Below are positions 2,424 through 24,634 of a DNA stretch of 64,000 nt, piece after piece. Position numbers and translations under genes: made by a program. The notes beneath the pieces are model-generated. The model did not search any database. It saw only the letters and a program-made list of their open reading frames with translations, and was not told the origin of the DNA. The stretch comes from Escherichia coli (GTDB taxonomy: Bacteria; Pseudomonadota; Gammaproteobacteria; Enterobacterales; Enterobacteriaceae), in the NCBI RefSeq assembly GCF_003334405.1, contig NZ_QOWM01000003.1; one strand, given 5' to 3'. Numbering within the stretch: position 1 is the stretch's first letter; the number at the start of each line of letters is the position of its first letter.

Positions 2424-3059
2424 TCAGATGTCAACTTTCTCTTTGTATTCACAAAGATCTTCAATAATACAAGAGCCACAGCGGGGCTTGCGGGCAATGC
2501 AGGTATAACGCCCGTGCAGGATCAACCAATGGTGGCAGTCGACTTTAAACTCTGCTGGAACCACTTTCAGTAGCTTTTCTTCTACCTGTTCGACGTTTTT
2601 CCCCGGCGCAAATTGAGTACGATTACAAACGCGGAAAATGTGCGTGTCGACAGCAATAGTCGGCCAGCCGAATGCAGTGTTTAATACGACGTTGGCTGTT
2701 TTACGACCTACGCCGGGCAGGGCTTCAAGCGCAGCACGATCTTCCGGAACCTCGCCATTATGCTGCTCCAGCAAGATACGGCAGGTTTTGATGATATTTT
2801 CTGCTTTGCTGTTATAAAGCCCAATCGTTTTGATATAGGTTTTCACCCCTTCAACGCCCAGTTCAAGCATCGCTGCAGGCGTATTCGCCACCGGGTAGAG
2901 TTTCGCCGTCGCCTTATTAACACTGACATCGGTCGCCTGAGCGGAAAGCAGTACGGCAATCAGCAATTCAAAAGGCGAACTGAAATTAAGCTCGGTGGTG
3001 GGATGAGGATTGTTCTCACGCAGGCGAGTGAGGATCTCCAGGCGTTTTGCTTTATTCAT
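2424..3059 (-). CDS. nth: Endonuclease III (DNA glycosylase/AP lyase)
   Basis: 211-aa ORF with HhH-GPD motif (LPGVGRKTANVV) and C-terminal 4Fe-4S cysteine cluster (C-x6-C-x2-C-x5-C); last gene of the rsx-nth operon. Confidence 0.95.
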   Translation of the reverse strand: MNKAKRLEILTRLRENNPHPTTELNFSSPFELLIAVLLSAQATDVSVNKATAKLYPVANTPAAMLELGVEGVKTYIKTIGLYNSKAENIIKTCRILLEQHNGEVPEDRAALEALPGVGRKTANVVLNTAFGWPTIAVDTHIFRVCNRTQFAPGKNVEQVEEKLLKVVPAEFKVDCHHWLILHGRYTCIARKPRCGSCIIEDLCEYKEKVDI

Positions 3060-3754
3060 CAGACATTCCCTGTTTCACCGTTTGGCAATGCACGTTCTGC
3101 AGCTGCTTCAGCACGGCGCTTTTTCATTCTTTCATCAATCAGGTATTTTCCTGCCAGCATCAGTCCCAGGCCAATAAATGCACCTGGTGGCAGCATCGCC
3201 AGCAGGAAAGGGGAGTCGGTGTGGAAAATCTCCACGCGTAATACTTTTGCCCAGCTACCTAACAGCGCATCTGCACCGTCAAACAATGTGCCATTGCCGA
3301 TAATTTCGCGTAGTGAACCCAGCACGAACATGGCGCAGGTTGCGCCCATACCAATTGAAAAGCCGTCCAGTGCCGAAAGCGCCGGACCTTTTTTGGCGGC
3401 GAAGGCTTCAGCGCGGCCCACAACGATACAGTTAGTGACAATCAGCGGAATAAAAATCCCTAATGATTGATACAGGCCAAAGGCGTAGGCGTTGATCAGC
3501 ATCTGTACAGCGCTGACCACCGAGGCGATGATCATCACGTAAATGGGAATGCGGATCTCGGCTGGCGTCCAGTGACGCAGCGTCGAAATGGTCAGGTTGG
3601 TCAGCGTCAGTACCAGCGTAGTCGCAAGTCCTAAACCCAGAGCGTTAGTGGCAGTGGACGTGACCGCCAACAGAGGACAAAGGCCGAGCAACTGGACCAG
3701 CGCAGAGTTGTTTTTCCACAACCCCTGAACAATAACGTCTTTAATTTCGCTCAC
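3059..3754 (-). CDS. rsxE: Ion-translocating oxidoreductase complex subunit E (Rnf-type)
   Basis: 231-aa polytopic membrane ORF recognised as RsxE; stop overlaps the nth start by 1 nt (translational coupling). Confidence 0.95.
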
Positions 3755-13538: not shown

Positions 13539-16334
<2,796 letters not shown>

Positions 16335-21634: not shown

Positions 21635-22900
21635 ATGAGAAAAATAGTGGCCATGGCCGTTATTTGCCTGACGGCTGCCTCTGGCCTTACCTCTGCTTAT
21701 GCGGCGCAACTGGCTGACGATGAAGCGGGACTACGCATCAGACTGAAAAACGAATTGCGCAGGGCGGATAAGCCCAGTGCTGGCGCGGGAAGAGATATTT
21801 ACGCATGGGTACAGGGAGGATTGCTCGATTTCAATAGTGGTTATTATTCCAATATTATTGGCGTTGAAGGCGGGGCGTATTATGTTTATAAATTAGGTGC
21901 TCGTGCTGATATGAGTACCCGGTGGTATCTTGATGGTGATAAAAGTTTTGGCTTTGCCCTGGGGGCAGTAAAAATAAAACCCAGTGAAAATAGCCTGCTT
22001 AAATTAGGTCGCTTCGGGACGGATTATAGTTATGGTAGCTTACCTTATCGTATTCCGTTAATGGCTGGCAGTTCGCAACGTACATTACCGACAGTTTCTG
22101 AAGGAGCATTAGGTTATTGGGCTTTAACACCAAATATTGATCTGTGGGGAATGTGGCGTTCACGAGTATTTTTATGGACTGATTCAACAACCGGTATTCG
22201 TGATGAAGGGGTGTATAACAGCCAGACGGGAAAATACGATAAACATCGCGCACGTTCTTTTTTAGCCGCCAGTTGGCATGATGATACCAGTCGCTATTCT
22301 CTGGGGGCATCGGTACAGAAAGATGTTTCCAATCAGATACAAAGTATTCTCGAGAAAAGCATACCGCTCGACCCGAATTATACGTTGAAAGGGGAGTTGC
22401 TCGGCTTTTACGCGCAGCTCGAAGGTTTAAGTCGTAATACCAGCCAGCCCAATGAAACGGCGTTGGTTAGTGGACAATTGACCTGGAATGCGCCGTGGGG
22501 AAGTGTATTTGGCAGTGGTGGTTATTTGCGCCATGCAATGAATGGTGCCGTGGTGGATACCGACATTGGCTATCCCTTTTCATTAAGTCTTGATCGTAAC
22601 CGTGAAGGAATGCAGTCCTGGCAATTGGGCGTCAACTATCGTTTAACGCCGCAATTTACGCTGACATTTGCACCGATTGTGACTCGCGGCTATGAATCCA
22701 GTAAACGAGATGTGCGGATTGAAGGCACGGGTATCTTAGGTGGTATGAACTATCGGGTCAGCGAAGGGCCGTTACAAGGGATGAATTTCTTTCTTGCTGC
22801 CGATAAAGGGCGGGAAAAGCGCGATGGCAGTACGCTGGGCGATCGCCTGAATTACTGGGATGTGAAAATGAGTATTCAGTATGACTTTATGCTGAAGTAA
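21635..22900 (+). CDS. uidC: Outer-membrane glucuronide channel UidC
   Basis: 421-aa ORF with signal peptide (MRKIVAMAVICLTAASGLTSAYA/AQ) and C-terminal aromatic residue typical of OM beta-barrels. Confidence 0.9.
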   Translation: MRKIVAMAVICLTAASGLTSAYAAQLADDEAGLRIRLKNELRRADKPSAGAGRDIYAWVQGGLLDFNSGYYSNIIGVEGGAYYVYKLGARADMSTRWYLDGDKSFGFALGAVKIKPSENSLLKLGRFGTDYSYGSLPYRIPLMAGSSQRTLPTVSEGALGYWALTPNIDLWGMWRSRVFLWTDSTTGIRDEGVYNSQTGKYDKHRARSFLAASWHDDTSRYSLGASVQKDVSNQIQSILEKSIPLDPNYTLKGELLGFYAQLEGLSRNTSQPNETALVSGQLTWNAPWGSVFGSGGYLRHAMNGAVVDTDIGYPFSLSLDRNREGMQSWQLGVNYRLTPQFTLTFAPIVTRGYESSKRDVRIEGTGILGGMNYRVSEGPLQGMNFFLAADKGREKRDGSTLGDRLNYWDVKMSIQYDFMLK

Positions 22901-22906
22901 AAAATA

Positions 22907-22933
22907 ACGCCGGAGAGAAAAATCTCCGGCGTT
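22907..22933 (+). terminator. Terminator hairpin downstream of uidC
   Basis: cgccggaga-gaaaaa-tctccggcg followed by ttt; begins 7 nt past the uidC stop. Confidence 0.6.
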
Positions 22934-22963
22934 TCAGATTGTTGACAAAGTGCGCGTTTTTTA

Positions 22964-23061
22964 TGCCGGATGCGGCGTAAACGCCTTATCCAGCCTACAA
23001 AAACTCATAAATTCAAAGTGTTGCAGGAAAAGGTAGGCCTGATAAGCGTAGCGCATCAGGC
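22964..23061. repeat. REP pair (BIME-like) in the uidC-ydgA spacer
   Basis: gccggatgcggcgtaaacgccttatccagcctac (22964-22997) and inverted copy taggcctgataagcgtagcgcatcaggca (23033-23061); canonical E. coli REP consensus. Confidence 0.8.
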
Positions 23062-23088
23062 AATCTCTGGTTTGTTTTCAGATGAAAA

Positions 23089-23116
23089 CGCCGGAGTGAA
23101 AATTCTCCGGCGTTTT
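23089..23116. terminator. Bidirectional terminator hairpin; serves ydgA on the - strand
   Basis: cgccggag-tgaaaatt-ctccggcg, with AAAA upstream and TTTT downstream; 10 nt past the ydgA stop. Confidence 0.6.
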
Positions 23117-23125
23117 GGCCGTGAA

Positions 23126-24634
23126 TTACTGCTGCGGAATTGCCGGTACAGCCGGAACGTTAAGAGCTGGCATCGCAAACATGCCAACAAAATCTTCTAA
23201 CGACATTTTCTGCCCATTTAACGTTATCTGACCGTTAGCATATTGCAGGCTGGTGGTGATGGTATTGTCCTGCAAGGTGGTCAGACGGAACATCTGCCCC
23301 ATTGCTGATGCACCTTCAACTTGCTGTTTCGCCAGTTTTTTCGCTTGATCTTCCTGATAACCTTCCAGCTTCGCTACCTGAGTCATAAACTCAGTTGCCA
23401 TATCCACCGGAATGGTCAGTTTCGCATCCAGAGATTTAACCGAACGATCTACTTCCTGCGCCAGCGTTTGCGGCGCTTCTTTAGTCGTTGCCGGATCTTT
23501 CAGGAACAGCGACAGATTCAGGGCACTTTCACCCTGACTGTTTTTCCAGCTTAGCGGCGCGATAGTAATCACCGGATCGCCTTTCAGCATCAGCGGCAGG
23601 GCGCTAAAGAAGGCTTCCGTCACTTTCTCCTGATAAAGTTCGGGGTTGTTGGCAATTTCTGGCTGTGCCAGCAGCGCCTGAGTTTGCGCGTTATATTGCT
23701 GGCTAAACTGATGCCAGGCTTCACCATCAATCTGGCCGACTTTTAAAGTCAGCTTGCCGCTGCCCAGATCCTGATTCTGTACCTTCAGGCTGTTTAGCGA
23801 GTAATCCAGTTGGCTATTGATCGTTTTACCGTCATTGACCAGATCCGATTTACCGCTGATCTCCATGCCTTCCAGCAGTGCCAGTTCTTTGCCTTCCACT
23901 GAAATGGTCATTTTTTCCAGTGACAGTTTTTGATTTCCTACACGCTCACCAAAACTTGCCAGCGTGCTGGAACCGTCGGTTTTCAGATTATTAAAGGTCA
24001 ACTGCACTTTCTGGTTGTATTCGTTAACTGCGTCTATCCGACCACTTTGCGCCTCCCCGGAAAGGGAGATGGCTTTGCCGTCTCTGTCAGCATTTAACTG
24101 GAACTCGCCGCCGCTAAAGGCGACTTTTTCATCCTTTTGCTCGTAATTCAGTGGCTTGAGCGAAATATCGGAACTGGAATCACCGCTGTAACCAATGCGC
24201 GAGTTAATCTCAAAAGGCGTTTCACCTTTTGCCATATCAAACAGTGGTTTGCTTACTTCGTTATTAACCAGCGTGGTTTGAATTGATGCCATCGACGGGA
24301 TCAGGTTCAGTTTTTTAAGCTGGGCAAGCGGGAAGGGACCATGATCAACCGATTCGTTGAAGATGACGCTCTGACCGCTTTTAATCCACGGATTTTCTTT
24401 CCCGGCAATGGGTTTCACCAACAGTTGCAACTGGCTGCTGAATACGCCGCGATGATAGTTTTGATAACTCACTTCCAGGTTGGATTCAGGAGCTGTCAGT
24501 TTGAGTTGCGCGTTCGCCTGCGCGACCATGTCTTCGAGATGGGTTTCAATCTTCTTGCCTGTATACCATGCGCCGCCTGTCCAGACTACGCCTAGCGCAA
24601 CAATGACGCCTACCGCTACCAGCGATTTATTCAT
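23126..24634 (-). CDS. ydgA: DUF945-family periplasmic/membrane-anchored protein YdgA
   Basis: 502-aa ORF with N-terminal signal-anchor (MNKSLVAVGVIVALGVVWTGGAWY); recognised as YdgA. Confidence 0.9.
   Translation of the reverse strand: MNKSLVAVGVIVALGVVWTGGAWYTGKKIETHLEDMVAQANAQLKLTAPESNLEVSYQNYHRGVFSSQLQLLVKPIAGKENPWIKSGQSVIFNESVDHGPFPLAQLKKLNLIPSMASIQTTLVNNEVSKPLFDMAKGETPFEINSRIGYSGDSSSDISLKPLNYEQKDEKVAFSGGEFQLNADRDGKAISLSGEAQSGRIDAVNEYNQKVQLTFNNLKTDGSSTLASFGERVGNQKLSLEKMTISVEGKELALLEGMEISGKSDLVNDGKTINSQLDYSLNSLKVQNQDLGSGKLTLKVGQIDGEAWHQFSQQYNAQTQALLAQPEIANNPELYQEKVTEAFFSALPLMLKGDPVITIAPLSWKNSQGESALNLSLFLKDPATTKEAPQTLAQEVDRSVKSLDAKLTIPVDMATEFMTQVAKLEGYQEDQAKKLAKQQVEGASAMGQMFRLTTLQDNTITTSLQYANGQITLNGQKMSLEDFVGMFAMPALNVPAVPAIPQQ

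Follow-up and report, generated by a model that had tools for sequence, protein, structure and literature searches.

A BIME-1 element between uidC and ydgA of Escherichia coli, flanked by two copies of a probable ancestral terminator hairpin

Repetitive extragenic palindromes (REPs) and BIMEs (bacterial interspersed mosaic elements) are the most abundant repeats of Escherichia coli, and their mode of insertion is still unsettled. The specialist literature states the integration mechanism of REPs and of REPINs (REP doublets forming hairpins) as unknown, and a 2026 preprint, which discusses semi-random insertion into accessible DNA, calls the in vivo mechanism "not fully established". Here we describe one such element in a stretch of 64,000 nucleotides of E. 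coli (assembly GCF_003334405.1, contig NZ_QOWM01000003.1), referred to below as the window, with positions counted from its first letter. The element lies between the convergent genes uidC and ydgA, in a spacer of 225 nt between the two stop codons, and it is enclosed by two nearly identical hairpins. From comparison of alleles and loci, these hairpins are very probably copies of one ancestral uidC/ydgA terminator that was duplicated when a mobile BIME-1 inserted, and the same whole-hairpin footprint marks many other BIME-1 loci.

The closest described element is BIME-1 itself (also named RIP or RIB), in which a Y and a Z1 REP are combined with a long L linker, often with a site for integration host factor (IHF), in a single copy of about 140 bp that is present or absent as a whole among isolates. 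The spacer element agrees with this description: a Y REP and a GTAG-headed REP stand in inverted orientation with an L linker, in a single unit of about 140-150 bp that is extragenic, lies at 3' ends of transcription units and varies in presence among isolates. No difference was found in the element; the defined ends and the duplication of a whole terminator stem-loop are what is added here. That the element is a BIME-1, and that BIME-1 is polymorphic for presence, is already known. No description of its exact ends or of a whole-hairpin duplication was found in the literature searched; papers of the 1990s lay outside the search, and an earlier description is possible.

REPINs moved by a REP-associated tyrosine transposase (RAYT) resemble the spacer element in having a pair of inverted REPs that can fold into a long hairpin, a GTAG foot, a non-autonomous nature and a host species with a single RAYT. 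They differ in that Y1 transposition is single-stranded and leaves no target duplication, whereas the duplication found here is long, variable and palindromic, and in that the mobile unit of BIME-1 extends about 30 nt past each REP into terminal arms. [quoted passage not shown] Correia elements carry an IHF site as well, to which the predicted IHF-like core of our BIME-1 would correspond. MITE duplications, however, are short, fixed and set by the transposase, while those around BIME-1 measure 15-37 nt, equal the target palindrome and are themselves hairpins.

An intergenic 3' target chosen by structure is a feature shared with IS1397/ISKpn1, ISPpu9 and other insertion sequences (IS) in REPs, and with the REP dimers lying in palindromes of Thermomicrobium and Halothiobacillus; group IIC introns reportedly insert after intrinsic terminators. 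Such hairpin-homing elements go into a hairpin or next to it, so that it is split or stays single, and they duplicate 3-4 bp or nothing, whereas BIME-1 has a complete hairpin on both sides. In the nearest published case, that of the REP dimers inside palindromes in two other phyla, the target is split and not duplicated. A further parallel, drawn from established knowledge, is with the 9-bp target duplications of Tn10 and Tn5, where direct repeats around an inverted-repeat structure would be expected to promote clean loss; the flank repeats of BIME-1 are 2-4 times longer and are themselves palindromes.

Hairpin 1 (22906-22934) reads AACGCCGGAGA-GAAAAA-TCTCCGGCGTT+T, and hairpin 2 (23087-23115) reads AACGCCGGAG-TGAAAATT-CTCCGGCGTTT; they correspond to inverted repeats I4 and I2 and together to direct repeat D1. 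With its A/T extensions this direct repeat is 29 nt long, AACGCCGGAG[A/T]GAAAA[A/T]TCTCCGGCGTTT, and its copies are identical at 27/29 positions and spaced 181 nt apart. Near-identical hairpins around a REP pair had been pointed out in the first-pass annotation of this DNA, and their positions hold within 1 nt. Both stems are perfect (11 and 12 bp, 7 G-C pairs), and both hairpins form in the predicted RNA folds of either strand. Their cores, CGCCGGAGAGAAAAATCTCCGGCG at 22908-22931 and CGCCGGAGTGAAAATTCTCCGGCG at 23089-23112, are the only two matches in 64 kb to the pattern CGCCGGAG-N8-CTCCGGCG, for which the chance expectation is 0. We also considered two independent terminators that are alike by chance and rejected this, as the two loops agree when read in the same direction and as there is one copy in empty sites.

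The gap between the hairpins is filled entirely by a complete BIME-1 of 152 bp (22935-23086, + strand), delimited by alignment with paralogs and by its absence from short alleles. It begins with a left terminal arm (22935-22963, + strand) that starts CAGATTGTTGACAAAGTGCGCG, is conserved among aligned copies and is imperfectly inverted relative to the right arm. There follow an inverted Y-type REP (22965-22998, - strand), which reads GTAGGCTGGATAAGGCG... on the - strand with 2 mismatches to the consensus of copies (0 matches expected by chance), the L linker (22999-23032, + strand), a GTAG-headed REP (GTAGGCCTGATAAGCGTAGCGCATCAGGCA; 23033-23062, + strand) with 0 mismatches, and a right terminal arm (23063-23086, + strand), ATCTCTGGTTTGTTTTCAGATGAA, a diverged form of the consensus ...GCGTTTGTCATCAGTCTC. 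The two inverted REPs proposed at first reading are confirmed to within 1 nt. What that reading did not include is the larger repeated unit of 152 bp in which the REPs sit, the polymorphism of the locus and the recurrence of the architecture elsewhere.

The 34-nt linker aligns with the L linkers of the paralogs, and AATTCAA-N4-TTGCA is conserved in all aligned copies. The IHF consensus is WATCAANNNNTTR; the linker core ATTCAAagtgTTG at 23011-23023 is one position off it, a predicted IHF-like site. All aligned copies of the L linker carry a GTAG-headed REP, and we therefore assign this REP as Z1, following the published definition of BIME-1 as Y + Z1 + L. A REP pattern with the longer Z-type spacer had no match in the window, and patterns derived from the consensus matched instead. 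The Y and GTAG-headed REPs stand tail to tail and are the sole REP pair in the 64 kb, with GTAGG at 23033 and CCTAC ending at 22998. Their arms at 22985-22998 and 23033-23046 are 86% complementary, and those at 22964-22974 and 23052-23062 are 91% complementary; the fold of the BIME-1 unit alone as single-stranded DNA was only modestly better than that of shuffles (z = -1.9). An 8-nt repeat, TTTCAGAT (D7), has one copy where the T-tail of hairpin 1 meets the left end CAGAT and the other in the right arm's own TTTTCAGAT. The element holds no transposase open reading frame, and those overlapping it are spurious only. It is one single extragenic unit and not a tandem array. No RAYT gene was found inside the 64-kb window; in K-12, yafM is reported as the RAYT gene.

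We used positions 22931-23088 as a 158-nt query against 5,426 complete E. coli genomes. In genomes without the insert at uidC/ydgA, paralogs at fepA-entD, satP-mog and gloC-aspC covered 92-94% of it at 81-85% identity, that is, beyond the REPs alone. The consensus unit has the left arm CAGATTGYTGACAAAGTGCGC, the inverted Y REP, the linker AATTCAA-N4-TTGCA, the REP GTAGGCCTGATAAGCGTAGCGCATCAGGCA and the right arm GCGTTTGTCATCAGTCTC, and its ends form imperfect terminal inverted repeats (consensus CAGATTGCTGACAAAG against the reverse complement of GTTTGTCATCAGTCTC).

The first-pass annotation had suggested that an ancestral bidirectional terminator was duplicated around a REP insertion, and had proposed to compare the spacer across strains. 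An 825-nt query around the spacer was 100% identical to MC4100 and other K-12 derivatives, which identifies the window as E. coli K-12. In the same 5,426 genomes, 1,744 records matched this K-12 query at 99% or more, and those listed carry the insert. About 3,650 chromosomes, roughly two thirds, have a short allele that matches in two pieces and is about 181 bp shorter (642-645 nt against 825 in K-12); one common short haplotype accounts for 3,657 chromosomes. The missing 181 bp are the BIME-1 segment plus one copy of the hairpin. Short alleles read ...CTGAAGTAA(A/G)AAA(T/A)AACGCCGGAGAGAAAAATCTCCGGCGTTTTGGCTGTGAATTA..., one hairpin bordered on the left like hairpin 1 and on the right like hairpin 2. 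Since an A-tract and a T-tract lie at its opposite sides, this single hairpin looks like a bidirectional terminator.

The same state was found outside E. coli. A contig on which YdgA is only 86% identical and uidC is adjacent has a single hairpin, and in E. albertii and E. fergusonii, where uidC is absent from this place, one homologous hairpin directly follows ydgA. Because these outgroups and most E. coli hold one hairpin, we take the single hairpin to be the putative ancestral terminator of ydgA, shared with uidC in E. coli, and the K-12 state to be derived. The suggestion of a duplicated terminator is thus supported by the one-hairpin alleles of E. coli and by three outgroup loci.

The opposite polarity would be that the long form is ancestral, that its hairpins were duplicated for unrelated reasons, and that the short alleles arose by recombination between them. 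A near-palindrome enclosed by long direct repeats is easily deleted precisely, as in the precise excision of Tn10 and Tn5, and a 1997 abstract by Bachellier reportedly refers to BIME-1 "excision". A haplotype of K-12 type without BIME exists, and the BIME at gloC-aspC is common to E. coli and E. albertii. Nevertheless, we regard this explanation as extremely doubtful. The three outgroup loci have one hairpin at ydgA. The insert is at least 99% identical across all 1,744 carriers, which indicates that the filled allele is a single haplotype, whereas the short alleles are diverse and only 95.5-96.7% identical to K-12. Deletion alone also gives no reason why the two ends of a dispersed repeat should coincide exactly with copies of a locus-specific hairpin, as they do at 31 of 73 independent loci listed (below). 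Deletion probably occurs as the reverse reaction.

Two short alleles deserve separate mention. In the pig isolate E. coli PS2Canimalfeces12 (retrieved stretch 241-285), the UidC and YdgA proteins are identical to those of K-12 and the spacer has no BIME and one hairpin, with the loop TGAAAATT. It is the one record of a K-12-type haplotype without BIME that was seen, and it is either a precise loss or a pre-insertion allele. In E. coli RM14723 (retrieved stretch 500-1215), an IS200C lies in the A-tract just 5' of the single hairpin, equivalent to about 22901-22905 of the window.

The architecture recurs at other loci. Filled gloC-aspC sites read GCCCGC-TTTTAAT-GCGGGC, BIME-1 and GCCCGC-TTTTCA-GCGGGC, and empty sites contain GCCCGCTTTTCAGCGGGC once. 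At satP-mog, filled in only 467 genomes (e.g., Nissle 1917), the element stands between TCCCCCCGCTCGAAGGGAT and GATCCCCCCGCTTGGGGGGAT, and empty sites contain GATCCCCCCGCTCGGGGGGAT once. At potE-pgm it is surrounded by two copies of the hairpin GGGCGATC...GCCC, of which empty sites have one. Like uidC-ydgA, these three loci lie between convergent genes.

For a wider scan we used the pattern AATTCAANNNNTTGCAN{6,10}GTAGGCCTGATAAG in one genome per species, which gave at least 120 stretches from E. albertii, two E. coli-labelled genomes, two other Escherichia species and three Pseudocitrobacter genomes. After removal of arrays and orthologous loci, 73 loci were kept, and the counts that follow refer to these listed loci. 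The left and right flanks of each locus were compared by local alignment, with 5,256 mismatched flank pairs as control. A flank repeat scoring at least 11 was present at 31 of the 73 loci (42%) compared to 0.8% of the mismatched pairs. At a score of at least 12 the values were 40% and 0.34%, and at a score of at least 16 they were 23% and 0. Flank repeats were found in both Escherichia and Pseudocitrobacter.

The left end motif AGATTGCTGACAAAGTGCGC was present at 39/73 loci. In the 39 copies with both end motifs, the distance between motifs was 149-151 nt, mostly 150, or about 152 with the terminal C's. A flank repeat was found in 22 of these 39 complete elements, and in 18 of the 22 it abutted both element ends within 2 nt. 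A typical junction reads ...stem-TTT|CAGATTGCT...ATCAGTCTC|AAA-stem..., usually with gaps of 1-2 nt, and the element ends are identical to the nucleotide at most loci (CAGATTG...CAGTCTC). The repeats of the 22 complete elements are 15-37.5 nt long (median 21), and 19 of them fold at a dG of -8 kcal/mol or lower, a level reached by 9.7% of control segments. Outside the repeats, the left flank is rich in A and the right flank rich in T; with hairpins for repeats, such targets look like bidirectional intrinsic terminators. As far as these alignments tell, duplication takes in the complete palindrome together with 0-3 A/T pairs. The inserted unit at uidC/ydgA is a complete BIME-1 and more than two REPs, and the duplication appears to accompany BIME-1 insertion systematically rather than being special to uidC/ydgA.

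Tandem forms of the element were also seen in Escherichia sp. MOD1-EC7003. At 13901-14685 of that genome's retrieved sequence, 4.8 tandem units of 162 nt have a consensus that holds the hairpin AGGGTGAGGGATAACCTC and BIME-1 sequence, as expected from unequal exchange between duplicated hairpins; at a candidate counterpart in E. coli E69, one BIME-1 lies between two copies of this hairpin. At 2667-3524 of another retrieved stretch from MOD1-EC7003, eight tandem copies of 107 nt consist of Y REP, L linker and Z REP without the terminal arms. The latter array is a BIME-1-like core amplified in the manner described for BIME-2.

A dispersed unit with defined ends, locus-specific duplications that abut it, empty sites with one copy, and a duplication as long as the target palindrome are established by these comparisons. 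They could be accounted for by structural recognition of the target, whether it is extruded as a cruciform or folds into hairpins when single-stranded. Symmetric cuts in the two strands, made 0-3 nt into the A- and T-tracts at either foot of the palindrome, would be followed by joining of the element and by fill-in of the single-stranded palindrome on each side. The duplication would then be the whole stem-loop, with its length of 15-37 nt set by the target and not by the enzyme. A DDE transposase with a fixed stagger does not fit this range of lengths. We propose only tentatively, as an idea that falls short of being probable, that BIME-1 integrates in this way, with the palindromic terminator extruded and both of its strands cut symmetrically at the feet as the structure directs.

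The candidate enzyme, a weaker suggestion still, would be the REP-associated Y1 transposase RAYT/TnpA_REP. TnpA_REP works on hairpins of single-stranded DNA, with C^T as its cleavage site; it depends on a GTAG REP in cis, and either strand of a BIME can serve as its substrate. In the junction sequences, a C^T lies 2 nt inward of the junction at both ends of the consensus element, on the strand that runs outward (ATC^TG and GTC^TC). The IS200C of RM14723, an IS with a Y1 transposase, also lends RAYT some plausibility, since it sits at the 5' foot of the uidC/ydgA hairpin, a few nucleotides from what is the left end of the BIME-1 duplication in K-12.

Replication template switching could leave a similar arrangement. 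A fork would stall at the terminator hairpin, the nascent strand would copy a BIME located elsewhere or excised as a single strand, and it would re-prime at the start of the palindrome and copy it again. Hairpins and BIMEs stall polymerases, and BIME-dependent stalling sites are mentioned in the literature; the duplicated unit is always a complete palindrome, which suits re-annealing of a self-complementary 3' end, and no unusual transposase chemistry is required. On the other hand, the element ends are exact at most loci, which speaks for defined cleavage and is unexpected from switching driven by microhomology, and no homology is visible between the targets and the element ends. We judge template switching to be unlikely.

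If integration by structure-directed cleavage is correct, the duplication would represent the first trace left in vivo by REP/BIME transposition and would point to a two-strand action of Y1 (RAYT) or to another structure-specific activity. It would also account for the accumulation of REPs at bidirectional terminators of convergent genes and for the easy loss or tandem amplification of BIME-1. REPs are known to be enriched between convergent genes, with many lying within predicted bidirectional terminators. Within a repeat family long known from the best-studied bacterium, the uidC/ydgA locus is ordinary; the footprint is strong and general, and it bears on how REPs and BIMEs integrate. It offers as constraints a palindromic terminator as target, symmetric cuts at its feet and the involvement of both strands. 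It could further explain why REPs are enriched between convergent genes, why their insertion is tolerated, and the polymorphism in presence and array size that is used in REP typing.

Several points weigh against insertion with hairpin duplication, or against the proposed enzyme. The insertion event is reconstructed from alleles, none having been observed directly, and the polarity of the polymorphism was read from outgroups and haplotype diversity, not from a phylogeny. The 73 loci are a partial sample of BIME-1 copies, and about half of the copies have no flank repeat. One of these is at fepA-entD. At gloC-aspC, E. albertii (retrieved stretch about 1300-1560) already has a BIME-1 with duplicated hairpins; that insertion is either old or was exchanged between species, and at least some E. 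coli short alleles there may be secondary losses. The loops of hairpins 1 and 2 differ at 2 positions, and hairpin 2 with the end of ydgA resembles an older, different haplotype. The terminator roles of both hairpins are predicted. Lastly, the C^T sites miss the junctions, lying 2 nt inward of them, and transposition of the IS200/IS605 type by Y1 enzymes normally occurs without target duplication, so that RAYT would need an unusual two-strand mode.

The BIME-1 at fepA-entD (retrieved stretch 570-790) lies between tandem genes, with no detectable flanking repeat or hairpin. Copies of this kind could reflect decay or a second route of insertion.

The difference between the two loops bears on the history of the K-12 allele. 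The loop of hairpin 1 is identical to that of the single hairpin of short alleles, while the loop of hairpin 2, two positions off, resembles those of E. albertii and E. fergusonii. Next to hairpin 2 is a divergent patch with sharp borders (23116-23225, - strand), made up of the 10-nt spacer and the last ~100 nt of ydgA and delimited by binned identities. It is 83-86% identical to short alleles, compared to 98-100% in the neighboring 100-nt bins, and includes a Pro-to-Ser change in ydgA (ATGCCA to ATGTCG). By hand count on the alignment, about 9/16 of the K-12-specific states in the patch are common to E. albertii. An origin of the patch by error-prone repair synthesis was rejected on this count, since roughly 0.5 matches were estimated for random new mutations. 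With one loop of outgroup type and one of the common E. coli type, the K-12 allele is best described as a mosaic.

One explanation for this mosaic is that the K-12 lineage acquired, through homologous recombination with a divergent Escherichia lineage where the element had already inserted, a ready-made tract of about 0.3 kb that holds the BIME, hairpin 2 and the 3' end of ydgA. The confinement of the differences to the ~100 nt adjoining hairpin 2, the E. albertii-like states of the patch and the contrast between the loops are in its favor. However, a donor allele in which both hairpins are of divergent type was not found, the left crossover would need to lie in the BIME or in the 11-nt right arm of hairpin 1, and the empty site of PS2Canimalfeces12 could equally be a pre-insertion allele. 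We consider such an import a serious possibility that stays a little below even chances, and it would complement duplication upon insertion, not replace it. Alternatively, the element may have inserted on a resident divergent haplotype and the uidC side been converted later; the duplication model is unaffected either way.

In two long-allele loci aligned to 22880-23140 of the window, the BIME and hairpin 2 were nearly invariant. Hairpin 1 has in some long-allele strains a T-to-C change at the loop base (AGAAAAAC), by which the closing A-T pair is lost.

The genes on either side are uidC (21635-22900, + strand), encoding the glucuronide porin and ending with the stop codon TAA at 22898-22900, and ydgA (23126-24634, - strand), encoding a DUF945 protein, with its stop codon at 23126-23128. 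Both are supported by the open reading frame list, uidC also by the RefSeq annotation of the identical K-12 sequence, and ydgA by annotation and by Pfam PF06097 on homologs. With a duplicated target, each convergent gene would keep a hairpin beside its stop codon, and such insertions are probably tolerated for this reason. The insertion would split the A- and T-tracts, so that for each transcript the full U-tract now follows the distal hairpin. Transcripts of uidC pass hairpin 1, followed by UUUCAGAUU, and then hairpin 2, followed by UUUUGG. Transcripts of ydgA reach hairpin 2 first, followed by UUUUCAUCUG, and the tail that they had originally, UUAUUUUUU, now comes after hairpin 1, the distal one. 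Read on the - strand, hairpin 1 is followed by ATTTTTT, which is the original strong U-tract for ydgA, and this was the only hairpin and strand to pass a terminator consensus scan; the gene-proximal tails are UUUCAGAUU and UUUUCAUCUG. Partial read-through that carries the BIME into both 3' untranslated regions (3'UTRs) is plausible. The long direct repeats around a near-palindrome would also favor precise loss and tandem amplification. Precise loss or unequal exchange fits the single hairpin of PS2Canimalfeces12 and the 162-nt array of MOD1-EC7003.

It could be speculated that hairpin, BIME and hairpin form a selected composite RNA element (an mRNA stabilizer, a regulator of both 3'UTRs or a small RNA) that is kept for uidC and ydgA. 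Both strands of the composite fold far better than shuffles (z = -6.6 and -6.8), and REPs are reported as 3'UTR terminators or stabilizers enriched between convergent genes. This is very unlikely, however, as about two thirds of E. coli lack the composite, as do the outgroups, and three palindromes whose origin is known account for the strong fold. In addition, a scan of the spacer gave no promoter-like site, and Rfam at permissive thresholds gave no family at its gathering score. The best Rfam match was naRNA4 (CssrE), at 37 bits against the required 59.5 and over the REP only, with others at 22 bits or less; these partial matches below threshold are due to REP similarity. An effect on expression is possible, but it would be a by-product of insertion; the second reading of the first-pass annotation, a composite structured element with influence on mRNA stability, finds neither support nor contradiction in these results. 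The 3' regions of ydgA and uidC in K-12 differ from those of most E. coli, which for this locus alone has small practical meaning.

Neither ydgA nor uidC has an entry in the supplements of one Term-seq study of RNA 3' ends, and the RefSeq feature tables of MC4100 and MG1655 list no repeat feature at this spacer. In O157:H7 FRIK804 uidC is annotated as frameshifted, and in SL124 as truncated at the N-terminus; the gene beside the spacer is therefore decaying in some lineages. Finally, short contigs with a BIME-1 of E. coli type are filed under assemblies of Bacteroides, Collinsella, Desulfosporosinus and Alkalicoccobacillus, most simply as a result of contamination or mis-binning by enterobacterial DNA.

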